A DNA stretch of 63,678 bases, counting the filler, from Craspedostauros australis (lineage: Eukaryota): NCBI GenBank assembly GCA_030167865.1. It is 11 parts of 11 records of this genome, joined end to end, with 100 filler letters (N's around TTAATTAATTAA, not from the genome) between each part and the next. Parts side by side here need not be neighbours in the genome. Positions count along the whole stretch, not along the records: positions 13,986 to 17,977 come from JALAGF010006151.1; 10 more parts are not named here. One strand, 5' to 3'. The notes below the pieces were generated by a model that made no database searches, was not told the origin of the DNA, and saw only the letters and a list, made by a program, of their open reading frames with translations. Shown in pieces: positions 13,886 to 61,938 of this stretch (positions are counted from its first letter, which is position 1; each line of letters starts with the position of its first letter). The translations under genes were made by a program, and so were the position numbers.

Positions 13886-13985
13886 NNNNNNNNNNNNNNN
13901 NNNNNNNNNNNNNNNNNNNNNNNNNNNNNTTAATTAATTAANNNNNNNNNNNNNNNNNNNNNNNNNNNNNNNNNNNNNNNNNNNN
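13886..13985. other. Artificial scaffold linker N44-TTAATTAATTAA-N44; the 12-mer also occurs at 18022, 31549, 36608, 45773, 48348, 52042, 55331, 57550 and 61883
   Basis: Identical 100-bp structure ten times; TTAATTAATTAA places stops in all six frames. Confidence 0.97.
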
Positions 13986-14444
13986 CGCTGACCATGGCCA
14001 TGACCAGGTCACACGGAAATCAATGACGGGCGTGGTTCTACTGATCAACAACACCATCGTCAAAACCATATGCAAACGACAGAACACAGTGGAGACATCA
14101 ACCTACGGATCCGAACTGGTAGCCGCCAGGATAGCTACCGAGGCGGTCACAGGTCTGCGCTACATGCTGAGAGATCTCGGAGTCCCCATCGACGGACCCG
14201 CAATCATGCTCGGAGACAACAAAGCNGTGGTACTCAATACTACGGTTCCATCCTCAACGCTGAAGAAGAAACACTGCTCATTGGCCTTTCACCAAATCCG
14301 GGAATGCATCGCCGCTGGAATCATCGTGTTCGCCCACATTGCGTCAGTCGACAACATCGCTGACATACTCACCAAGCCCCTTTCCAAAACACCATTCCAC
14401 CACATCACGTCGAGAACGATATTCCGGAACTCAATCCATGAGTC
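13986..14444 (+). CDS. Copia RNase H domain (end of pol, partial)
   Basis: ADHGHDQVTRKSMTG...KRQNTVETSTYGSELVA...GDNK...LKKKH...NIADILTKPL. Confidence 0.93.
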
Positions 14445-14973
14445 CNNNNNNNNNNNNNNNNNNNNNNNNNNNNNNNNNNNNNNNNNNNNNNNNNNGACGA
14501 CCAGAGCAGACGATGATCCCGATATAATGGCCACGGAGACGCAAGAACCACCACCACCGAAGGAAGAACACACTATGAGCGTAAACATGGCAAGGTATCA
14601 ACAGACCTCCATGAAATACAGCCCGACATCAAAAACCCTTCGGCTAACCAGAACCCAACGAGAACCGAACCCCCTCGAAACGGCACAAAGGAAATCACCC
14701 AGAACCATCAAGCGCACCAAGAGCACATCGGCCTCGCCCAACCGCCAACAGACGCAAAATTCCAGTGTCGTATACGACATGACCGACAACCGTACCACGA
14801 ATCAGAACCACGAGCCAGCCGGTGCGCCAACCGACAAACTCTTGATCCGGCGTGGTGACACACCACCATCAGCCCTCACCGACGAATTCAGCACATTCTC
14901 GAGTATCAACCCCTCATGTGGAANNNNNNNNNNNNNNNNNNNNNNNNNNNNNNNNNNNNNNNNNNNNNNNNNN

Positions 14974-17614
14974 GACGACCAGAGCAGACGATGATCCCGA
15001 TATAATGGCCACGGAGACGCAAGAACCACCACCACCGAAGGAAGAACACACTATGAGCGTAAACATGGCAAGGTATCAACAGACCTCCATGAAATACAGC
15101 CCGACATCAAAAACCCTTCGGCTAACCAGAACCCAACGAGAACCGAACCCCCTCGAAACGGCACAAAGGAAATCACCCAGAACCATCAAGCGCACCAAGA
15201 NNNNNNNNNNNNNNNNNNNNNNNNNNNNNNNNNNNNNNNNNNNNNNNNNNNNNNNNNNNNNNNNNNNNNNNNNNNNNNNNNNNNNNNNNNNNNNNNNNNN
15301 NNNNNNNNNNNNNNNNNNNNTGATCCGGCGTGGTGACACACCACCATCAGCCCTCACCGACGAATTCAGCACATTCTCGAGTATCAACCCCTCATGTGGA
15401 AGCGACGTCCTCTGCTACCCAAGAGACATGCTGGAGACAGGGCCCATCATGCCGAGCAACCAATCACACGTCGCCACATCGACTAAGTTCCGGAAACCGC
15501 CACCTGGAGCCGCCATGCCAGCCATCAAGGAAGTTAACTGCGAAACTTCCTTCCACACGGGCCTGACACCTCGGGTTTTCGTTACACCTGAGCACGAAAC
15601 ATACAGGTGCGACATGTTGATTGCTGATCTCCAAGAAGACCTGGCACGGAACGCGACCGCACCCTCTATTGCATTCCGCGACATGAACATGCTTTCACCA
15701 CAAAAACGGAGCCGTCACAACCAGGACCCCGGACACAACCTCTCCCCATTCCAGACGAGGACACGCAAGATGACATTCCCAAAGTACACCCCGTTCTACG
15801 ATGGCATCCAATGCCCCGTCCCCGGATCCAGGGTACTATATCCCGCAGGAAAGAAGGGACCTTTCCAAGGAATCGTCGTCGGATACAGTGGCCGCAGAGT
15901 CCGAATCTTCTGCATGAAGGGAAACGATAACACATCAGCCGGCGAAATCACCCACGTAGAGAAACAATCCATCTACCCTCTCACCCTCTCCGAATACCTG
16001 GATGACAACCTCCAAACCANNNNNNNNNNNNNNNNNNNNNNNNNNNNNNNNNNNNNNNNNNNNNNNNNNCTCACCCTCTCCGAATACCTGGATGACAACC
16101 TCCAAACCACCGAGGTCCTCAGCATCGCCATAGCCGATGGCCAGTGCTTCTACACCAAAGAGGACGGCGCATGGGGCGAATCACCCGACGAGTACCGCGC
16201 AACCTTGCGGAAGCCATCCATATGCCACTTCTTCAAGGTGAGGATGAACCGGATCCCAATCATCCTCGCACGCGCAAGGAAGGCACGAATGGTCCGGAAA
16301 CAAAGCGACACCCTCGCCGTCAATCTCGCACGAGAGAAGAAAGCGCTCGCGAACGAGCCTTTTCCCCCTACCGATGAGGACGACATGGTCGACGGAATAC
16401 CATCCCTCGAAGACACCCGTCCCAGTCTCGAAGAGGGAGAGACACTAGAAGGCAGGTTCCTGGATGAGATCCCGGACGGATTCTTCGACAAGAAGATGAC
16501 CGCAGAAGAAGCCAGCCATCAGGAGTCTGAATCAGAGGTGTACCGCGATGGAGACCAAGAATCGCAGGAACCAGGAAGTGTGATTGACGTGGAAGCAGAG
16601 ATCGCAAGTGGGGCGGTGATCAGCCATCCCAGACCTCCCATCAGACGATCATCACGACCATCACCGGCGTCCAAAATCTTGACCGCCACGCGAGATGGAC
16701 AAGGGTATACCGACAAGGTACGCCCAAAGCCCATGATCCCGACCGACCACTCCGTGGACAGCGCGTCCGCCCAAGAGCCCGGCGACAGTGACGATTCTGG
16801 GTCCATCTTCCGACCAGAAGACAACTCATCCAACCGGAACCAAGCATCGCGACGACCTACCCCTGGAGCCAGCAGCAAGCAAAGCAACCGCCCCAAGAGA
16901 AAGGGGCTCTTCGATGAATCTGAGGATTCAACCGTTTCCTCGGGAATGTCAAGAATCAAGACAATCAAACAGGTCAGGTCCGCCAAGAAAACCACGAGTG
17001 GGACCATCAACGCGAAAGGAGCCCTCACCACGACCGCGGAGAATCCTCCCGATGCAACAGAGCCGATGCTCCCTATAACCCGGGATGAGCAACCAGAGGT
17101 CCCTACGCCACCGGAGGGGCCAGCCGATGATGACGTGCCGATAGCAACCGCGTACCCGGCACCTGCGAGCCACAATGAGGATGCGAACACCAGCACCCGC
17201 AGTTTCCCCGTTTTGAACCATCCCCTGCCATCGACACCCAACACTCCGGAGACCAGCAACGCTAACAAGAGGGCCCGAACGGAACCCCGACCAGCGATCG
17301 CATACCCGTCGCCCCGACGTCTTCGATCTGGGTACATCATGTCCGGCAACCCTGAACCAACGATGATGCAACCATCCATCTTCCAGATGCCTCCCGACCC
17401 CACAGCTCAGATCAAGGCCGTCCTCCAAAACGACGAGAGGACACCTATGGTTATCCAAACCCTTGCCGATATCCTTTTCTGCGGAGGGCTCGACCATATC
17501 AACCAAGTTCAGCAGGTCAGCATCACCTCCTCGCTGAACAAGGCATTGAAAGCCATGCTCACCAACCGCCGCCAAAGCCGCAGCTACTACGACAACAACG
17601 AACAGTCCGAATGA
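14974..17614 (+). CDS. Extra ORF (about 850 aa after removing duplicated overlap) between RNase H and 3' LTR; unknown function
   Basis: Long open frame, stop at 17612-17614 about 100 bp before the LTR; true start lost in the gap at 14445-14495; 14496-14923 is a duplicate copy. Confidence 0.8.
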
Positions 17615-17698
17615 AGCCCGCTCGCCGCCATCTTGGGCGGCGGAACAAACCACACTATGATTAGCTTTCTTGCTTTCAGTCAACTCACGTTTCAACGT

Positions 17699-17712
17699 GA
17701 GATGAAGGGGAG
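17699..17712 (+). other. Polypurine tract
   Basis: GAGATGAAGGGGAG directly abuts the LTR start. Confidence 0.85.
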
Positions 17713-17977
17713 TAATAGAGCTAAACTAGTAGCCACCTTAGCGAGAGAGACTACGAATCATCCGATTCGTCAGCATTCCAGTAGATCGAATGAATACTTC
17801 GCCGGACCCCACGTTTGGAGACAGATCCAGAACCTTGAAGCGGATCTTCGGAATTCGTGTCAGGGAACCAATGAGGTTCCGATAACCAAGTTCCTGACAC
17901 CCACCATCGCCAAAACGCCGACGCACGGAACCAAAGCCACAACAACGAGCATCATCGCCCATTGTCTCTCACAGAAC
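17713..17977 (+). repeat. 3' LTR of copia family A (truncated by scaffold end)
   Basis: Aligns by eye with 29567.. and 39236.. Confidence 0.92.
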
Positions 17978-18077
17978 NNNNNNNNNNNNNNNNNNNNNNN
18001 NNNNNNNNNNNNNNNNNNNNNTTAATTAATTAANNNNNNNNNNNNNNNNNNNNNNNNNNNNNNNNNNNNNNNNNNNN

Positions 18078-28900: not shown

Positions 28901-31504
28901 TACACTGCATGTGCAAGGGTACAAACCTGGAACTTGGGATGCAGGCCTGAGGAGTACTTCAGTGATCTGGCCATCACACCAAAGGTGCGGTTGAGTCCCT
29001 CAACCTTGCCATTCATCCAAGCGCATCTGGCCCCAGTGGGTTCGAGAGTGTATCCCGCAGACCGGACGACCTCCTGGAAGGCACTCGATCATGCAAGCTC
29101 GCCACCAGTGTCGACCCTCACCGCCTTGCAACCATCCTTGCAACCAAACTCATGAAGCAGGTTGGCAAATATGTCCACAGGTGGGGATCTGGTCTTGGTA
29201 GGGGAACCCCTAAGTGTACCAAGTGCACACATCAGTGACAAGAAAGTACAAGTGTACCCTTCAAGAGGCTGGACCACCTGTTCGACTTGGCAGAGTTGCG
29301 TGACGACGCCTGTCCGTACTGAAGATCGGACGACCACATGAAGCCGTAGTCAGCATGGAATCTTGCACCAGTGGAGGGAACAGGGCTGCCATCTTGAGGT
29401 CCTTGAGGATCTGTCTGACACTGGGCTTGGCTGCATGTAGCACAATGCCGCATTGGATGTGCACAGTGGNNAGGAGGCCTGGAATACCAGAACAGTGCAT
29501 ATGGAGCCACTTCATGTGCGACATACCAGCGCAGCCCAGGCACATATGCCAGAGCTCCGCGCTGAGTAATAGAGCTAAACTAGTAACCATCTTAGTGAGA
29601 GAGACTACGAATCATCCGACTCGTCAGTATTCCAGTAGGTCGAACGGACACTTCGCCGACCCCCACGTTTGGAGACAGATCCAGAACCTTGAAGCGGATC
29701 TTCGGAATTCGTGTCAGGGAACCAATGNNNNNNNNNNNNNNNNNNNNNNNNNNNNNNNNNNNNNNNNNNNNNNNNNNGACACTTCGCCGACCCCCACGTT
29801 TGGAGACAGATCCAGAACCTTGAAGCGGATCTTCGGAATTCGTGTCAGGGAACCAATGGGGCTCTGATAACCAAGTTTCTGACACCCACCATCGCCAAAA
29901 CGCTGACGCACGGAACCAAAGCCACAACAACGCGCATCATCGCCCATTGTCTCTCACAGAACTCAGACAACGGATCTCGACCCACGGTACTTGGGCTACA
30001 CAACCCACACGCATTGTCATACAGGACACCACAGGAGATCCCCCTCGAAGAGAAGAACCATAGCACTAATCTCATAATCCGCACGTTTCTTCACCATCTA
30101 CCAGTATTCTCAATTGACTACTTGTGGAACAGAAGACTCACATTCGGACCGCTTGCCAGTCAAGCCTCTACAGCCTACAGCTAAAGAACAGCCAACAAGA
30201 CAACAGCCATTACGTTTGGGCTCTATTACTGAGTGCAGGCAGTGCACGCTGGACAGCGAACGCAGTTAGCTTGACATCATCATTGGTACTGAAGAAGTAG
30301 AGTCTGTTGCAACGACGCGTGGGCGCATCAATGGAACACCTGTGGCCATGGAAGGAGAGAACATACCCTGATGGACCGTCATGGAGCACATAGCACACAA
30401 AGTCATTGTCCTGCTGGCGAACAATGGCCTGCAACAAGACAAATTCTCAGCCAGATCAGGGCAGAGCATTGTGTTGGCCTAAATCACTCCACTGCACAAG
30501 CTGGGAATGGTGAGAGTGCTTTCTCTCTGGCATACCATACAGGTCGCACTGGCATTAGCTGCAGCCAGTGGGACAACATTGGTGTACCACTGATAGTCTT
30601 GGAGGATAGACCAGTCAGGCGTAGCACTGACGTTTGCACAAGGATATCATTCCCCCACATTGTCTATAGGGTTTCATGCATGCACCGTACTTCCAGAAGA
30701 CGGAGCAAGTGAACAGCGCAAGTGTGGGCAACTACAAAGGTGGCCAGCTTTGACAGAGTGATCTCTGGAGGGACAGACTGTGTGAACGAGGGCACTTCAT
30801 CAAGCGAATGTACTGCCTGTGTCCTGCTAGCGCATGGTGATAAAATATGCCGTTCGTCAAGAATTGTGCCCGATCCTGACCAGCAGGCCAAAATCGTGTT
30901 TAAGGGCATCCTGAATCGCATCAGACAAGATGAGATCAGAGAAGTCGCCGTCACCATGGTTCCTGAAGTGCTGTAGAGCATGAGCAGTTGCCTTTGACCT
31001 GTTGCAACCAAAGTGGGTGCAATAGCTTTTGTGAATCTTGTTGGCCTCATCAGGATGCTCTTGCACAAAGTGCATGAGATGGATGGTGCGCCCAAAGGCT
31101 TTGCACATACATGCCTTGTATCCCATGTAGCAACATGCTTCGCAGAAGGCATCTAGATTGGGCTTGTAGAAGGTATTGTGCCGCCTGTGTGACCAACTGT
31201 TGTCCTGTCGGTCGCCTTGTCCGCCACAACTACTGTGGGTTTGAGTGCAGTGGGCCTTGAGTGAAACAGCACTGCCAGGGGGATCTACAATTCTTGGGCA
31301 AGATGCTCGGCATGCAGATTGAAAGGCAGTGCCTTGGGCGATGTCACAGTGCGCAGCATGGTGTGGTAATGCTCCAGCATGTACCCGTGCTCACGCAGAT
31401 CCTCGAGAGAGATAGGACTCAGGTTTGTCGAGATGTACATGTGAGTATATGTCAAGATGTACGTGTATATGTGCATCGTTCACCCGTTATTCTCTCATAC
31501 GCAC
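25959..31504 (-). mobile_element. Degenerate Ty1/copia family C (many stops and frameshifts), with a probable 141-bp 3' LTR at 25959-26099
   Basis: Fragments LWHMCLGC, VRVDTGGELA, NGKVEGLNRTFG, IFDEAHF, YMDADWGA, SLITSKAEF; G-tract then TGTTGGCATC at 26099 on the minus strand. Confidence 0.85.
29567..30228 (+). mobile_element. Solo LTR of family A nested in family C, 5-bp TSD CTGAG
   Basis: CTGAG at 29562-29566 and 30229-30233; ends TAATAGAGC...GCTCTATTA; ~530 bp after removing the 50-N gap and 81-bp overlap. Confidence 0.95.
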
Positions 31505-31604
31505 NNNNNNNNNNNNNNNNNNNNNNNNNNNNNNNNNNNNNNNNNNNNTTAATTAATTAANNNNNNNNNNNNNNNNNNNNNNNNNNNNNNNNNNNNNNNN
31601 NNNN

Positions 31605-36563: not shown

Positions 36564-36837
36564 NNNNNNNNNNNNNNNNNNNNNNNNNNNNNNNNNNNNN
36601 NNNNNNNTTAATTAATTAANNNNNNNNNNNNNNNNNNNNNNNNNNNNNNNNNNNNNNNNNNNNCAACTGATGACAGAGACCCAGGTGTTTTGTAGTGGGA
36701 GAATGAAGAGTGGTGGTATTGATGGTGAGTACAGCCACATGTCCATGGTGGAGCTGTACAAGGTTATGGATCAGGATGAGGGTACAGCACAAGTGGATTC
36801 ATACATGGATCGGGCAACATTGGTGGACTTCGTCCGC

Positions 36838-39235: not shown

Positions 39236-39762
39236 TAATAGAGCTAAACTAGTACCCACCTTAGAGAGAGAGACTACAAATCATCCGACTTGTCAGCATT
39301 CCAGTAGATCGAACAGATACTTCACCAGCCCCCACGTTTGGGGACAGACCCAGAACATTGAAGCAGATCTTTGGAACCCGTGTCAAGGAACCAGAAGAGT
39401 TCCGATAACCAAGCTACTGACACCCACCATCGCCAAAACGCCGACACATGGAAACAGAGCCCCAGCAACGCGCATCATCGCCCATTGTCTCTCATGGAAC
39501 TCAGCCAATGGATCTCGACCCACGGTACTTGGGATACATGACCCATACACACTGTCATTCAGGACACCACAGGAGATCCTCCCCGCAGGGAAGAACCATA
39601 GCACTAATCTCATAATCCGCACGTTTCTTCACCATCTACCAGTATTCTCAATTGACTACTTGTGGAACAGAAGACTCACGTTCGGACCGCTTGCCAATCA
39701 AGCCTCTGCCCAAAGCTATCAACAGCCAACAAGACAACAGCCATTACGTTTGGGATCTATTA
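39236..39762 (+). repeat. 5' LTR of family A (527 bp)
   Basis: TAATAGAGC...GATCTATTA; boundaries match the TSD-defined solo LTR. Confidence 0.93.
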
Positions 39763-39775
39763 GATTAACAGTCAC
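39763..39775 (+). other. Putative primer-binding site complementary to the tRNA-Asn(GUU) anticodon arm
   Basis: GATTAACAGTCAC, reverse complement GTGACTGTTAATC, directly after the LTR. Confidence 0.7.
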
Positions 39776-39807
39776 AAAAGATTGTCAAGCTCTTAGACCC
39801 CTGCAAG

Positions 39808-42183
39808 ATGACCGTCACCCAACGCCTCCAAGCCTCCAACCGGCCACCTCCCAAGAGGAGCCCAGGAGATAGGACCCTAGCCTTCGAGACCCTTCCCGCG
39901 GACCCAAAGGACCCAAGCCTCTCTGCCATCCTTGATGGCACGCCAGGCTACCCAACAACCGGGCCATCTTCGCTCTCCTTCACAGAGATCGGAGTCGACT
40001 TCATCGAGGTCACCTTCCGACACCCCATCATCGTGGATGCATGGAATCGAAAGGAAAGAACCAACGAAGCCGAAATCGTGCGCCACGTCCACAAGACTAC
40101 CTGGAACGCGTTCACGGAACTCAAGCAAGAGTTTCGGATCAGCATCGAAACCGCCATGATCTTTGATCTCTTCCCATCCAAGACCCTCGCAGAAGAGAAG
40201 ACCATCTCCCAACTGCTGATCACCATCCATGAAGAAGCCACCGACATGAACCCGGCATTAATCATGTTCAACCTCAAGCACCCGGACGACGTGGCAAGGA
40301 ACTACGAGACAGGACTCCTCATCTACCACATCGGAGAATGGGTCAGATCCATCAAAGTTGAGGATGAATCCACTCTCGAATCCACCCTTGACGCAATGTT
40401 CACCGACACGGACACCACCGCCAAAGCCATGGCAGACTTCTGCCGTTCCGAACGATGCGGCAAACGCCACCACAACCAAGCTTGGTTGAATGTCATCGGG
40501 GAACACAAGAAGGCACTCTCCAACGCATCCGCGACCAGCGTCTCATCTGGGTCAGAAGCATCTACCCGTAGAACCGGACGCGACAACGACAGCCACCAAG
40601 GAGGAACCCCATCTGGGCTCTCCCTCATGCTCGGTGGGAACACCCCGCACCGTACCCCACCCGACTTCCCGAACGAAACCCAACTCTCCAGCATCGCCAA
40701 GCAAGGATCACAAAACACGTCACCAGCAATCATCGACACCCGTGGTACCACCCCGCCCAACGAAGATACCGAACCAGGCACCAACTACGACCAACACCAT
40801 GATAACGACGATACCGTAGACGTACCCGACAACCGCGGTCCCACAGGACGGAACCGACTTTTCCCCAACGTAGACCCAGCAACGATCGGTGACTTCGACC
40901 GCAACCCAACCGTCGCCAAGGTAGTAACCTTCGCCCCCGAAACAACCGCAAGAGGTCCAGGAGGTACCAACGCACCCCGGATGAACTACCCAGAGAATGA
41001 CGGGAACCGTCCACCCCACGATCGAAACCTGCATCCCTACCACGGTGCCGCGGATACACCGGCCTCACATGGTGTGGGTAACTATCGAGGCAACAACGGG
41101 CACGAACCCGTGAACCGAAACCCTGTCAGTAACCCACCCGCGAACCATGGGACAAACCGCCCGCACCGTGACAACCATGGGCCTCCAATTAACCATGGAC
41201 ACAACGGCGGCGACCCTTATGGGCATCCCCCTAACTTGGGGAACCAATTCCCTCATGGCCCACCGCTTCCGATGTACCACAGAACCCACCCAGGAGGATT
41301 CCCGCCCATTGGAATCCCTATCCCCATGGGCCATTTTCCCCATGGAACCGGAGGTTTTCCAATGCCACAAGGAGCCTTCACCCCCGTTGGACACCCTCAC
41401 CCCGGGTATCCACCACGACCACCCGCGTATGGGTACCGCCCAACCGATCCCAATGGAGGTTTCGGAAGACATGACCCACGCAACATGGGCCCGAACACCC
41501 CACACGGGCAACACGAACCCGGGTATGCACCCCATCGAGGATCCACCCGCAGCGAACCACCAGTCGCCCAGGCCAAGCTAACGAAGCGACGCCCCATCCC
41601 TGACTCCGTCAAATTCACGAGTGACGCGGCATCCTTCCAAGTGGTGAAACACCAAATCCATGCTCATCTCCTTGGAAACGACATGGCGTACCTGATCAAC
41701 GATCAGTTCCGGCACCGATACCATTCCCAAGGAATCCATGCGATCAAGGACCACATCGACCCGGTGACAGGAGTGCCAACAACCACCTCGCCAGAACAGG
41801 TCGCAAGCGACGTCAGGACCCTATTCGCGGGACTATACTCCGTCTTCGCCGGCGGCCCAGCACATGGACTCGCCACCAGAGGACTCCTCACCGAGGACGG
41901 TATCCTATTCTGGAATGAACTCCTCAATACCTACGATAGCGACTGGATCAGAGGAATGGAGGTCGACTCTCTGATGAAGAGAGTGCATGATTTCAATCCC
42001 GGCAGACAGGACCTGGGATCCTACCTGAAGGAGATCCAGGATATATTCGCGAACGTGAATTTCCTGGCAACCAACCCGGATCAACAAGTCTCCGACGCGC
42101 AACAACGCCGCACGCTCCTTAACCACCTCATCGGTTGCGACGACATCAACGTACGCACCATGGTCCGGAGCATCGAGCGAAGC
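39808..42183 (+). CDS. Gag of family A, unusually long with a Pro/Gly/His/Asn-rich middle (runs into gap)
   Basis: ATG 45 bp after the LTR; C-terminal DGILFWNELLNTYD...YLKEIQDIF capsid-like segment. Confidence 0.8.
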
Positions 42184-42318
42184 NNNNNNNNNNNNNNNNN
42201 NNNNNNNNNNNNNNNNNNNNNNNNNNNNNNNNNNNNNNNNNNNNNNNNNNNNNNNNNNNNNNNNNNNNNNNNNNNNNNNNNNNNNNNNNNNNNNNNNNNN
42301 NNNNNNNNNNNNNNNNNN

Positions 42319-45300
42319 TGAATCCAACACCGAGATGGTCATCAATGCCATCTCGAAGAAACTACAGGAAGATCCCACCTTCATCTCACAAGAAGTATTC
42401 GATGGACTACCCGAGAAGGTCCGTCGAGTGATCATGAAACTCCGCAGCTCCCTCCGTTGGGCCCGCCGCAACAATGACCGGAACGGATCCGGATTCACCC
42501 GCGTCGAGGGCAAGAAGGAGCAGGAAGAACCCCAACCACCTGCCAGCGTGAAGCCCCCAGAGAAAGGGGAGGAAACCAAGCCACACAAGCAGTATGGAGG
42601 TGTCACCCACGCGAACCTGGCCAGGTACACCCCAGGATCCACCGAGGGAACCGATTCCCAGGACGAGAATGGCTCGGATCTATCCTCGATTGACGCTTCG
42701 GAGCTTGCCAAGTTCCTGGTCGATTATGGAGGATACGAGGAGAACGGCAACGACCGGCTCGTGAAGATGATCACGATGAGTGATTCATCTGGCACCACAA
42801 GCCCCGTCGACCCGCCCGAATCCAAACAACGCCAATCAGTGCCCGAACAGCTGATCAACCTGGCGACCTTCTCTCCGCAAACATACGCGGTATGCGACGG
42901 TGGCGCACAATGCTGCGTTATCGGGAACAAGGACCGGGTCTGGAAGATTGACTACATCTACCCGCATCGGACGTACAACATCGTCGGTGCCGTGGCCAGC
43001 ACGATGAGGAAGAACAACCTCGCGGTGGTAGACGCAAGTATCAAGGCCAGAACCAGGGAAGGCAACGAAGTGATCCTCCGGATCTACGAAGCCGCCCTGA
43101 ACGCTGACAGCCGGGTAACGCTGCTCTCCGACCACCAAATTCGGGCCAGTGGAACCGTCCTCGATACGGTCTCATCGGAACACCGAGCATCGTTCTCGAC
43201 ACCAGGCACAGGAAGACAATGCCTGATGCCTGACGAGGACACAACGATCAACTTGGAGATGCGGGACGCGCTGATGACGTTCGACGTTTTCCCCATCATG
43301 GAGGACGATGAGGATCTGCCCACCCACGACATCACCCCAAAGCAAGGATGGAACCCTTCGGATCACCAAGGAGGACACGTATGCAACGTGCCCATGGGTT
43401 GCTACCTTACCAGGGACCCGAACGGAGGAGAGAAGGCAGTTGACTGGGATGGCCGACCTGATGCACCGCATGACGCTGGAACGATGGATCCAAGCGCCCG
43501 CAACGCATCGATGGATCCCATGGAACCCGGGACAAGCCAGGCCACGGTCGGCATCCCGGATAATCCCATAGAAGGACGAGAACCCATGGACCCCAACGCC
43601 CGTCATCCAGACGAGCACGCCACAGAAGGTCTCAACCATGTCAACCAGGAGTACCCCAAGGTGGACGCATTCCTTGACACTCTAAGTCTCGAGGAGCTCA
43701 TTGGAATGTCACATGCAATTGACACGGTAACGTTCGCGAAATCGGCCACCGACACAGCCATCTCGATCCAAGACACCCTCTTCGACCTGGTAGACAATCT
43801 CTCTGCTGGAGACATCGACCACTTATACAGGGAACTGGGCATTGATCGCAAGGCCAACGCGGTAGGAACGGACAAGAAAGGATACACCGAGTCAACCAAC
43901 GTACCACCGACAAAGGTACCAGACCTGGATGACGAGGCAGACAGCGCCATCTCATCCTTACACTCGGTAGGATCCGAACCGGCGTTCCAAAGAAATCGGG
44001 AGACATTTCGCATCCCCAACGAGATCGGCGTGACCAAGGCAACACGCGCTGACACCCTCCGGGGAGACCCGCGAAGCGCACCTGGATACCACGGGCACAC
44101 CAAAAGCGAGAACCCCGTCGGGATTGATGATCCGGGAAAGGACAATCCCATGGACACCATGGACCGACACCCTGCGGAAGCTATGACCGAGTACAGCCAC
44201 CAAGGGTTCCCGTTCCGAGCTAAATGGAAGTCCATCGATCTTCACAAGATCCAACCGTACCTCGGGTACCTACCCACGCACGTGATCAAACAAACCCTTG
44301 CCAGAACCACACAACTCATGCGGGCAGTGATCACTTACCCTATGCGAAGGCACAAGAAGTCCAGATTCGAGTGGATGCGACGACAGCGAATCCGGGAGAT
44401 CGTGGCGACGGACACCATATTCTCCAACGTCAAGTCTTTTGGAGACGGATACTCCATGGCACAAATCTTCNNNNNNNNNNNNNNNNNNNNNNNNNNNNNN
44501 NNNNNNNNNNNNNNNNNNNNNNNNNNNNNNNNNNNNNNNNNNNNNNNNNNNNNNNNNNNNNNNNNNNNNNNNNNNNNNNNNNNNNNNNNNNNNNNNNNNN
44601 NNNNNNNNNNNNNNNNNNNNNNNNNNNNNNNNNNNNNNNNNNGGAGAGAAGGTCCTCAAGCTTCTTAGGGACCTCCACATCAAATCAAGGCTGACAGAAC
44701 CGCACAACCAGCAACAGAACCCGGCCAAGCACAACGCCATCCTGTACATGAAGTGATGTGTCACAACACTCATTGACCGGACAGGGGCACCGCCAAAAGC
44801 ATGGTACCACGCTTTCCGATACATGTGCTACGTGCACAACCATACATCAGACCCGTCCCTACGATACGCAATCCCACACACCGTACGACACGGAGAAACC
44901 GTCGACATCTCTGCGCTCTTGACCTTCCAATTCTACGAGAAGATCTTGTACCATGACCCCAACGCTACCTTCCCGAACTCGAAGGAGAAATCAGGATACT
45001 GGCTCGGCATGGCAGAGTCCCATGGGGACTTCCTCACATACCACGTGCTGGACGATGAATCCCGACGAGGACTGGTACGGAGCGTGGTCCGCCCCTTCCG
45101 GAAGGGTATAAACAACAACAGGCGTGTCACCTTCGACCAAGACATGGACCCCGAGGCAGATAACCCCAGCACACGGACCCCGCTGGAACTGTCCGGTACC
45201 CCACAAGGATGGAAGACCAAGACCCCACCGAAAAGAGGGTATGCGGCGACGGCCAAGACGACACACCCGCGGGCATGGGAGAACAAGACCGACAAGATGA

Positions 45301-45728
45301 AACGAACCGCTGGGATCCCTGATTCAGGGGAGGCACGGAACACAGGACCCGTCACCCGATCCCAAACGCTAACCAAGCGGACAGCGAAGGCACCCACGAC
45401 GCGTGCCACCGAGGAGGACAAACCGCGAACGAACCGCGATACGCCAGACAGGGGAGACTCTGACCCAGGGTCTTCGTACCTTCCATGTTCGTCGGGACCA
45501 CCATCATACCAACGCATGGATGACGGCCCCGAAGAAAGGGGAGGGAATAAGAGGACCAAGCAAAACAAACNATNNGTTTTGTCAACAGGTACCAGGAAAG
45601 GCATCCCATGGAAGAACATCGTCCATGGAACGATCAGATCCATAATCCAGACCATCGCAGCGGACCCAGTCACGACAGGCGTGAATACCGCGCCACCGCA
45701 AAGGGTACCCACCCTAACAAACCATCCA
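42319..45728 (+). pseudogene. Gag end/Pol of family A (protease, integrase) with premature TGA at 44754-44756
   Basis: YAVCDGGAQCCVIG, TLLSDHQIRASG, YLGYLPTHVIKQTLARTTQ, VATDTIFS, TEPHNQQQNPA, GETVDISALLTFQFYE. Confidence 0.85.
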
Positions 45729-45828
45729 NNNNNNNNNNNNNNNNNNNNNNNNNNNNNNNNNNNNNNNNNNNNTTAATTAATTAANNNNNNNNNNNNNNNN
45801 NNNNNNNNNNNNNNNNNNNNNNNNNNNN

Positions 45829-48303: not shown

Positions 48304-49013
48304 NNNNNNNNNNNNNNNNNNNNNNNNNNNNNNNNNNNNNNNNNNNNTTAATTAATTAANNNNNNNNNNNNNNNNNNNNNNNNNNNNNNNNNNNNNNNNN
48401 NNNTGACCGGAATGACGGAGCCTTGCCAGTGGAGTTGCTGACTGCGAGATGACGAACCTTCGGATCTGCTGGCATTCTGTTGTTGCTTCGCACGGTCATC
48501 ACGTTGTCTTGTGGAGGAAGAGTCACACGATGTCTCTTCCTCTGTTGTGACTCGTTTTGCATGACGTGGAATCCGTCCCCTGTGACGTAGAAGACGGATC
48601 AGCGAGAGTAAACACGAAATAGCTCTAAATGTACAATCGCCGTTTCTCCCAAAAGCAAGCAAACCAGTGGCAACAAGGGGCCAAAACTCTACAACTAGCG
48701 TTATCGTGACCCAGTTTACGGTTTGGCGCAGGTCGTACGATGACGCACGCAGCAGTCAGCGAGATGATGGCGACTGTCAGAAAATTGCAACCGCGTTAGC
48801 GGCAATCGTGCTTGGGAACCGCGGTAAAGACCACATATTGGTCGGTTTGCTGATGGGACTCCAATAGTAGTCCAAGTAATCCGTTGCAACAAAGTAGACT
48901 ATCTAGAAGGAACTACCGTAGACACCAAATCGTCCTAGTGTGATCATGGTGATTAGAGTTATTCGCTAATAGTGTTATTCTTGTTCGTGTGTTCAGGGGT
49001 GGTCGGGATAGTC

Positions 49014-51581: not shown

Positions 51582-52097
51582 NNNNNNNNNNNNNNNNNNN
51601 NNNNNNNNNNNNNNNNNNNNNNNNNNNNNNGTCCCACTTAGTAGTAACAAATAGCCCAACTTTAGCAAGCACAAAAGGTTCATCCCACATGCCCCCCTTG
51701 CCTGTTTGAGTGAGTGTTGTTAGGGTGTCCTGATTACGGGGTAGTAATTTTAGTGCTTTGTTTTGCTGTTGGAGGTTTGAAGGACTACCTTGTTGTGGTT
51801 GCATGTGGGACGCACTGAATAGCCAGTCCAGGAGGACGGAGACGAGGAGACACCAACGCTTGCCCAAGAGAGTCCCGGTTTACATCATGGACAAACGAAG
51901 GGCAACATCAGCCAGGCATCTTGGCCACCCAACCACAACGACGTTGAGCGGAGGGACGGGTTTGTGGTCGCCACCACTGCCCACAACGGTAGCGATGNNN
52001 NNNNNNNNNNNNNNNNNNNNNNNNNNNNNNNNNNNNNNNNNTTAATTAATTAANNNNNNNNNNNNNNNNNNNNNNNNNNNNNNNNNNNNNNNNNNNN

Positions 52098-55286: not shown

Positions 55287-55469
55287 NNNNNNNNNNNNNN
55301 NNNNNNNNNNNNNNNNNNNNNNNNNNNNNNTTAATTAATTAANNNNNNNNNNNNNNNNNNNNNNNNNNNNNNNNNNNNNNNNNNNNGATGACCAGGCACA
55401 AGCGATTTTCTCCCTTCCCGCTCTTTCCCATCATCGCCTCTCCATCATCACTACATTGGTGCTCCTTGA

Positions 55470-56985: not shown

Positions 56986-57605
56986 TGGCGGAAGAGTCCG
57001 GAGTGAGTGCGAGCATACATACATGCTACACACATGCATACATCCATGCATGTATACGAACGAATGGACGTATTGTACGGATTCAGCAGGCGAAGAACCC
57101 AACATGGAAGACGTCAGTGAAGGCCACCAGAGGGCAATGAGTGCGATGATCCGGGTGACTCACCGTTGTATTCCCCATGGCGCTTGCTGTTGGGACTGCA
57201 CTCGCAGCGATCATCGCCGCAAATAGTGCATCAGCGTCGAATGGCCACAGTGCCTTCATGATCAACATGCCAGCGTTGTGATTGATGGAAGAGAAGAACG
57301 GCCAATGCTGTATCGATTGCACTGGAGTACGGATGCCCATGATTTGTGTTGAACAAAGTTGCCTTCGCCTCCTTGAGATTGTCTGATCAAGTCTGTGCTT
57401 CTCACCACCTGCGCCGTCACGCCACGATCCAGGAGGCAAGTCTTCGTCTGCTTGCTGCGGAATGTTGCTTCATGAGATGCCACAAAACAGATATCGCCAA
57501 ATCAANNNNNNNNNNNNNNNNNNNNNNNNNNNNNNNNNNNNNNNNNNNNTTAATTAATTAANNNNNNNNNNNNNNNNNNNNNNNNNNNNNNNNNNNNNNN
57601 NNNNN

Positions 57606-61838: not shown

Positions 61839-61938
61839 NNNNNNNNNNNNNNNNNNNNNNNNNNNNNNNNNNNNNNNNNNNNTTAATTAATTAANNNNNN
61901 NNNNNNNNNNNNNNNNNNNNNNNNNNNNNNNNNNNNNN

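Follow-up and report, generated by a model that had tools for sequence, protein, structure and literature searches.

To our knowledge, few descriptions exist of the accessory genes that retrotransposons with long terminal repeats (LTRs) carry outside plants and animals, and for most such genes the function is unknown. Published retrotransposon systems close to the locus considered here come from plants and diatoms. In plant LTR retrotransposons, additional open reading frames (ORFs) in sense and antisense orientation lie between pol and the 3' LTR, and some of the sense ORFs are env-like (PMC7264820). For the diatom CoDi elements, the available text describes only an upstream ORF1 and a polyprotein ORF2 (Maumus et al. 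2009, PMC2806351); integrases of the CoDi-A copia elements carry a putative chromodomain (Llorens et al. 2009, PMC2774666), and CoDi copia lineages have also been reported from ocean samples (PMC2806351, PMC2774666). A ribosomal L26/KOW domain occurs in LTR-retrotransposon consensus sequences of Aegilops tauschii, and plant Copia elements are described as rarely gaining domains (PMC9289625). This domain was the nearest precedent returned by a full-text literature search, which in the portions of text it covered gave no copia element with a reported KOW gene. Here, we describe an 849-codon ORF in the env position, past pol and ahead of the 3' LTR, in a Ty1/copia-type LTR retrotransposon of Craspedostauros australis (GenBank assembly GCA_030167865.1), together with a family of small KOW-domain genes in the same slot of related elements. 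The window, that is, the whole stretch of DNA analyzed, is 63,678 nucleotides (nt) long.

The extra ORF is genuine: the element bears it in sense orientation, in the interval from pol to the 3' LTR. Once two assembly artifacts are removed, it runs for 849 codons to a TGA at 17612-17614 with no internal stop, in agreement with the initial annotation, which had described a sense ORF of about 850 residues between RNase H and the polypurine tract (PPT)/3' LTR; the other two sense frames of the de-duplicated sequence contain 21 and 28 stops. At a T content of 14.6%, base composition would give about 27 stops where none is seen (P about 1.5e-12), and each third of the frame is open independently (P 2e-3, 2e-5 and 3e-5). 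The longest ORF in 500 shuffles had a mean of 147 and a maximum of 403 codons, and 0/500 reached 849. When the three sense frames are compared by a codon model, for which 5,702 codons from the window's copia (pol) ORFs served as training set, the model favors the frame of the ORF in all eight intervals of 100 codons, with a preference that peaks at codons 201-500, around a segment of beta type, and is weak in the first 100 and the last 350 codons.

The ORF lies on a short unplaced scaffold. Scaffold ends are marked by N44-TTAATTAATTAA-N44 linkers, of which the window contains ten; the window is therefore a series of unplaced scaffolds, features on separate pieces are not neighbors, and DNA beyond 13986-17977 is not the genomic neighborhood of the ORF. 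Artifacts were traced with a map of the N runs and a self-BLAST of the window. A redundant contig carrying the 5' end of the ORF (14496-14923) is 100% identical to 14974-15200 plus 15321-15401, at an offset of 478 in both pieces, and fills to the base the 120-N gap between them (15201-15320). A further gap of 50 Ns at 16020-16069 is false, as the same 40 nt stand on each side of it (15980-16019 and 16070-16109). Before de-duplication, the ORF listing gives an open frame at 14846-17614 that contains runs of X. From 16070 on, the sequence is unbroken and comprises the end of the ORF, 84 nt, the PPT, and the LTR in that order, and the ORF thus lies inside an LTR element whatever its link to the RNase H contig may be. 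The element has a copia-type RNase H as the last domain of pol and a PPT, and the LTRs of its family bear terminal inverted repeats and are associated with a 5-bp target-site duplication, all as in Ty1/copia elements. Of the element itself, the scaffold covers the 3' 4 kb only. The RNase H fragment has 746 relatives at E<=0.001, the best 120 of which share 57-68% identity with it and in many cases contain RVT_2; an RNase H alignment found no relative among viral contigs.

The junction between pol and the ORF falls within a 50-N gap (14446-14495), the size of which is a placeholder, so that continuity of frame across it carries no meaning. As the initial annotation had cautioned, fusion and separate ORF can therefore not be told apart from the sequence itself; the pol ends of the relatives favor a separate ORF. 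In 120/120 of the best relatives (of 746), pol ends 0-66 residues past the last residue encoded before the gap, 17 of these 120 proteins being cut earlier by contig ends. Of the 398 RNase H relatives found in metagenome contigs, 80 loci were analyzed; pol reaches a stop in 77 of them, and where at least 800 nt follow downstream (51 loci) this stop lies -4 to +57 codons from the gap position. Because pol ends near the gap position in relatives, a separate ORF starting from the ATG at 14527 is likelier than a fusion to pol. This ATG lies 10 codons into the contig and opens 839 codons, while the other two frames close immediately before or on it, at 14514-14516 (TGA) and at 14525-14527 (TAA, which overlaps the ATG as TAATG). 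Most likely, then, the ORF is a separate gene starting at this ATG and not the tail of pol. The TAATG layout could couple termination to re-initiation, provided that pol arrives in the frame of the TAA.

The predicted protein has none of the features of an envelope protein. Its best 19-residue Kyte-Doolittle mean is 1.12, which gives no membrane-type segment, and its composition is dominated by P (10.1%), S (9.4%), T (9.0%), R (7.5%), D (6.6%), and E (6.5%), with A likewise abundant. The initial annotation had assigned the ORF to the env position of copia family A, had seen no transmembrane segment in it, and had called it S/P/D/E/R-rich; all of this is borne out. It had also pointed to nuclear localization signal (NLS)-like patches, and a PKRK and a KRAR patch are indeed present where it had placed them, while the nuclear localization that it proposed is not supported beyond these two short strings. 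Residues 283-336 form a G/V/K/R-rich segment of beta type, within which the stretch PGSRVLYPAGKKGPFQGIVVGYSGRRVRIFC (15821-15913) keeps the outer spacing of a KOW motif, the pattern G..V.[VY]..G......G.V followed by a hydrophobic strand being readable in residues 283-313. Close to the C-terminus, residues 780-836 make up a hydrophobic to amphipathic block with the highest hydropathy of the ORF. Tandem repeats within the ORF are trivial ones only. Two antisense open frames of 295 and 258 codons overlie the ORF (16522-17406 and 16952-17725, both on the minus strand); most likely, they stem from the skewed composition, the antisense strand being A-poor, and are not genes.

The extra ORF is an orphan. 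A phmmer search with a translation of 879 residues against 1.84 billion representative proteins gave 0 matches at E<=0.001, and a word-indexed protein search with the C-terminal 514 residues gave none. Four pieces of the ORF searched against Pfam at E<=1 and four shorter pieces searched at E<=10 matched no family apart from Ndc1 at E 0.96, and the KOW family PF00467 in particular was absent at both thresholds. Pieces of the ORF found no relative in viral contigs or in metagenome contigs, and the 80 related copia loci contained none either (best E 6.1). In the ESM Atlas, the best score for the beta segment was 0.88, under the lead level of 0.9, and the C-terminal block gave no usable match; a sequence search of PDB with a piece of 232 residues returned one irrelevant row (E 0.99). 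Neither DNA nor protein comparison reveals another copy of the ORF within the window, and copia family A, as the initial annotation named the group, is thus represented here by one copy.

The slot occupied by the ORF is used in related elements as well. Sense ORFs of at least 120 codons that start at most 400 nt past the pol stop are present in 23 of the 80 loci; the longest has 274 codons, and nothing in relatives therefore approaches 849. A gene of 111-189 residues that we name KOW-ORF3 occupies this slot in 12 of the 56 loci whose sequence continues for at least 600 nt downstream, and profile iterations converge on these 12. Its ATG lies 160-270 nt past the pol stop and 3-8 codons before a motif G[DAS]xVxVxxGxxxGxxGxV, after which come an acidic linker, varying in length from about 10 to about 110 residues, and a conserved C-terminal block. 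Of 12 ORFs tested, five match the Pfam KOW profile (PF00467) at E<0.1, and one of these five exceeds the gathering score; the KOW-ORF3 profile matches Spt5 KOW domains in PDB at E 5e-11, in addition to uL24/L26. Eight more KOW-ORF3 proteins of 75-147 residues are found in a large protein collection, where one bears the source name 'ribosomal protein L24'. With an alignment of 13 rows, AlphaFold models the C-terminal block as a helical hairpin with a predicted local distance difference test score (pLDDT) of 80-93, the KOW part staying below 50; a Foldseek search of PDB with this model (mean pLDDT 59.8) gave no match at E<=0.001. The ratio of non-synonymous to synonymous substitution rates is 0.34 in one close pair, with 7 synonymous against 8 non-synonymous changes, and 0 in another, with 6 against 0. 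Large ORFs farther downstream in the same contigs are the gag-protease part of the polyprotein, and KOW-ORF3 therefore sits between pol and LTR. The loci that bear KOW-ORF3 cluster on a quick tree of RNase H (6 changes; 0/500 shuffles as low) but are spread over several subclades. KOW-ORF3 is a recurrent KOW-domain gene under purifying selection after pol.

Our preferred reading, to which we give an even chance, is that the 849-codon ORF is an element-borne, separate gene, neither env nor a tail of pol, that descends with strong divergence from a KOW-ORF3 gene and encodes a putative nuclear accessory protein binding RNA or polymerase. In this model, the product would be mostly disordered and rich in P, S, T, R, D, and E, with two short parts, residues 283-336 and 780-836, that may fold. 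The ORF would be a much expanded descendant of the small KOW-ORF3 gene, a proposal for which the chances appear evenly balanced. KOW domains, such as those of Spt5, NusG, and uL24, bind RNA polymerase and nucleic acids. A KOW-type barrel in the ORF protein could likewise bind RNA or the transcribing polymerase, and the protein might work in the nucleus on the transcript of its own element, on the transcription of that element, or on its silencing; the long disordered arms with their basic patches would then serve import and multivalent binding. We speculate further, as a bolder version that we hold to be rather unlikely, that a copia clade of aquatic microbial eukaryotes bears an Spt5-like KOW gene in the 'env' slot, of which the ORF would be a more than four-fold expanded form, and that its product mimics a factor of RNA polymerase II elongation or small-RNA silencing of the Spt5/SPT5L type, thereby aiding transcription or blunting silencing. 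The relatives of the element come, according to their contig names, from marine, sediment, and other metagenomes.

Direct comparison of the ORF with KOW-ORF3 leaves homology between the two about equally probable and improbable, judged from sequence. The KOW/Tudor-like segment of the initial annotation gains from the comparison in that the best local hhalign match of the KOW-ORF3 profile along all 849 residues falls on residues 283-313, in the KOW register (P 0.16; P 0.047 on a piece of 81 residues), but HMMER and Pfam lend it no support, and the AlphaFold model of a single sequence of 232 residues, with a mean pLDDT of 31.3 and strands in the beta segment below 50, is too poor to judge the barrel fold proposed there. 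The reading of the protein as a chromatin reader is without support, as no Pfam reader family matches and nothing points to Tudor or chromo domains. One HMMER profile of KOW-ORF3 reported no match on the ORF at all, and the six frames of the window gave nothing significant with the KOW-ORF3 profiles. A helical hairpin in the C-terminal block of the ORF is possible, its likeness to that of KOW-ORF3 being one seen by eye.

Several observations weigh against descent from KOW-ORF3 and, more broadly, against the preferred reading. The marginal hhalign values (P 0.047-0.16) are reached by 8/200 global and 13/200 block shuffles; HMMER profiles of KOW-ORF3 rank the full ORF 155 of 1001 among shuffles and the beta segment 412, 94, and 171 of 2001; and hhalign of the C-terminal block with the KOW-ORF3 hairpin gives P 0.71. 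KOW-ORF3 has 111-189 residues and its motif 3-8 codons past the ATG, whereas the ORF has 849 codons and its motif at residue 283. The element of the window sits on a long unresolved branch of the quick RNase H tree, and its nearest rows lack KOW-ORF3. No homologue of the ORF was found among the 1.84 billion representative proteins, in viral and metagenome contigs, or in the 80 related loci, no Pfam family matches it, and at pLDDT 31 the single-sequence AlphaFold model provides no usable fold. Its amino-acid make-up is such as any frame of A/C-rich DNA would encode. Finally, there is a single copy, on an unplaced 4-kb scaffold pieced together from contigs that are short and overlap, and only scaffolding across the gap links it to the RNase H contig.

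The same evidence bears on what else the ORF might be. It might be no working gene, either a young proto-gene that arose through the composition of a 3' region poor in T or a recently dead copy in which stops have still to accumulate. The low T content, shuffles in which ORFs can reach 403 codons, open antisense frames (258 and 295 codons) that betray a permissive composition, the lack of homologues in every collection searched, the pLDDT of 31, and the weak codon signal in the first 100 and last 350 codons would all fit such an origin. It has difficulty, however, with about 27 expected stops that are missing from this frame and not from the other two (21 and 28), with the openness of each third on its own (P 2e-3 to 3e-5), and with the fit to pol codon usage, which is best for the sense frame in 8/8 intervals, and we regard it as rather unlikely. 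Another reading makes the 849 residues a C-terminal extension of pol, continuous with RNase H across the gap and resembling the chromodomain tail of some integrases, though located behind RNase H. No stop is visible from the last RNase H codon (14445) to the ORF, whose frame stands open as soon as sequence resumes past the gap, and acquired modules fused to pol are known from the putative chromodomain of the CoDi-A integrase (PMC2774666). But the 50-N gap gives no frame information, pol extends at most 66 residues past the gap position in all 120 best relatives and stops within -4 to +57 codons of it in the 51 loci mentioned above, and an ATG stands 10 codons into the contig with the other two frames closing just before or on it; we thus consider an extension of pol decidedly unlikely.

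Capture of foreign sequence, be it a fragment of a host gene or another repeat, or a scaffolding chimera in which the RNase H contig is misjoined, would explain why the nearest RNase H relatives lack any comparable ORF, and a scaffold of short contigs with false gaps, in which the link between RNase H and ORF is itself a gap, invites the suspicion. The order of ORF, PPT, and LTR on unbroken sequence speaks against it, as do the lack of a cellular homologue among the 1.84 billion representative proteins and the presence of genes in the same slot of related elements, and we find it very improbable. The idea of an envelope-like gene of the plant Sirevirus or insect errantivirus type draws on position only, that is, on a sense orientation between pol and the 3' LTR in a slot whose sense ORFs include env-like ones (PMC7264820); with no hydrophobic segment (best 19-residue mean 1.12), no Pfam envelope family, and a composition of the disordered type, it is close to refuted. 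The preferred reading, a separate and element-borne ORF with a possible KOW ancestry, stands beside these alternatives at the even chance given above.

Other parts of the window belong to the same LTR family (Table 1). The 3' LTR downstream of the ORF (17713-17977) shares 87.6% identity with 39236-39500 and 93-96% with 29564-29962, and the termini of the family are TAATAGAG...CTCTATTA. A solo LTR (29567-30228, in the interval 29562-30233) has an 8-bp terminal inverted repeat TAATAGAG/CTCTATTA; with its 5-bp duplication, and together with a 5' LTR that precedes gag-pol ORFs, it confirms that the repeat after the extra ORF is an LTR. The LTRs end in TA...TA instead of the usual TG...CA. In a related copy, the 5' LTR is followed on the plus strand (39769-45728) by three ORFs, 805, 717, and 324 codons long; parts of them correspond to gag, protease, and integrase of the copia relatives from metagenomes, and none of the three has a Pfam match at E<=0.001. 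The 805-codon ORF contains a long low-complexity stretch rich in G, P, H, and N. Among the metagenome loci, another subclade carries a second, unrelated family of open frames (123-247 codons) just past pol; the single member tested has no Pfam match at E<0.1, and the frames may be coding or may lie in the LTR. Three contigs of 7.2-8.6 kb (L001, L008, and L025) have identical ends of 111-123 nt and are probably elements assembled as circles, with two LTRs collapsed.

Table 1. Features of the element, of the window, and of related loci. Positions refer to the window unless a locus is named.
Feature	Position	Strand	Remarks
Unplaced scaffold bearing the extra ORF	13986-17977		3,992 nt
C-terminal RNase H part of copia-type pol	13987-14445	+	153 codons; starts at linker, ends at gap
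50-N gap	14446-14495		Conceals pol end and pol/ORF junction
Redundant contig with 5' end of extra ORF	14496-14923	+	Duplicate by self-BLAST
First ATG of the extra ORF frame	14527-14529	+	Residue 11; likely start codon
Extra ORF	14974-17614	+	Span as initially annotated; de-duplicated start is the first base after gap 14446-14495; 849 codons + TGA
G/V/K/R-rich beta-type segment	15821-15982	+	Residues 283-336; KOW-like spacing G..V.Y..G..G...G.V
False gap and 40-nt duplicate	16020-16109		Gap 16020-16069 (50 N); self-BLAST
PKRK basic patch (NLS-like)	16892-16903	+	String match only
KRAR basic patch (NLS-like)	17267-17278	+	String match only
C-terminal hydrophobic/amphipathic block	17402-17572	+	Residues 780-836; highest hydropathy of the ORF
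Polypurine tract GAGATGAAGGGGAG	17699-17712	+	Abuts LTR start 17713
3' LTR	17713-17977	+	Cut by scaffold end; starts TAATAGAG
Solo LTR, same family	29567-30228	+	5-bp target-site duplication CTGAG on each side
5' LTR of related copy	39236-39762	+	gag/protease/integrase ORFs downstream to 45728
Linkers N44-TTAATTAATTAA-N44	13886-13985, 17978-18077, 31505-31604, 36564-36663, 45729-45828		
Linkers N44-TTAATTAATTAA-N44, further	48304-48403, 51998-52097, 55287-55386, 57506-57605, 61839-61938		
KOW-ORF3 loci	L015:1707-2147, L024:2937-3371, L032:1314-1748, L037:3970-4536, L043:1997-2488		
KOW-ORF3 loci, further	L038/L040:1069-1437, L044:1432-1800, L053:1105-1542, L070:1766-2128, L074:862-1293, L075:984-1553		
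KOW-ORF3 family proteins, further			P0121-P0128
Second open-frame family	L046:4189-4929, L048:2507-3217, L049:4420-5130, L051:7631-8341, L057:1096-1464, L062:1708-2076		Just past pol

If expressed, the ORF would enlarge the set of proteins that copia elements encode by a large one that evolves fast and is mostly disordered. The evidence for the 849-codon ORF consists of one copy in a poor assembly, and the KOW-ORF3 family is the more solid and more testable lead, a concrete one on how a retrotransposon might engage the transcription-elongation or silencing machinery of its host.

Set beside KOW-ORF3, the ORF lies in the same slot and on the same strand, has a G/V/K/R-rich segment with KOW spacing, and includes a variable acidic linker and an amphipathic C-terminal block. 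From the KOW domains of Spt5, NusG, and uL24 (PF00467) it differs in having no Pfam or PDB sequence match, whereas KOW-ORF3 does match Spt5. The L26/KOW domain of the Aegilops tauschii consensus sequences is likewise a KOW-type module within an LTR retrotransposon, but in a plant element and as a recognizable ribosomal-protein domain (PMC9289625). Membership of the element in the CoDi lineages was considered and is not established. The chromodomain of the CoDi-A integrase provides a precedent for the capture of a module (PMC2774666); in CoDi elements, however, this module is fused to the integrase, and the available text describes no ORF after pol (PMC2806351, PMC2774666). The additional ORFs of plant elements, the function of which is unknown in most cases, resemble the ORF in position and orientation; the ORF differs from them in belonging to another copia clade and in having neither envelope features nor sequence similarity to them (PMC7264820). 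Thus, with a KOW origin that is unproven and about as probable as its contrary, the 849-codon ORF is an accessory ORF and not env, and it belongs to a kind already known, the additional ORFs of LTR retrotransposons.

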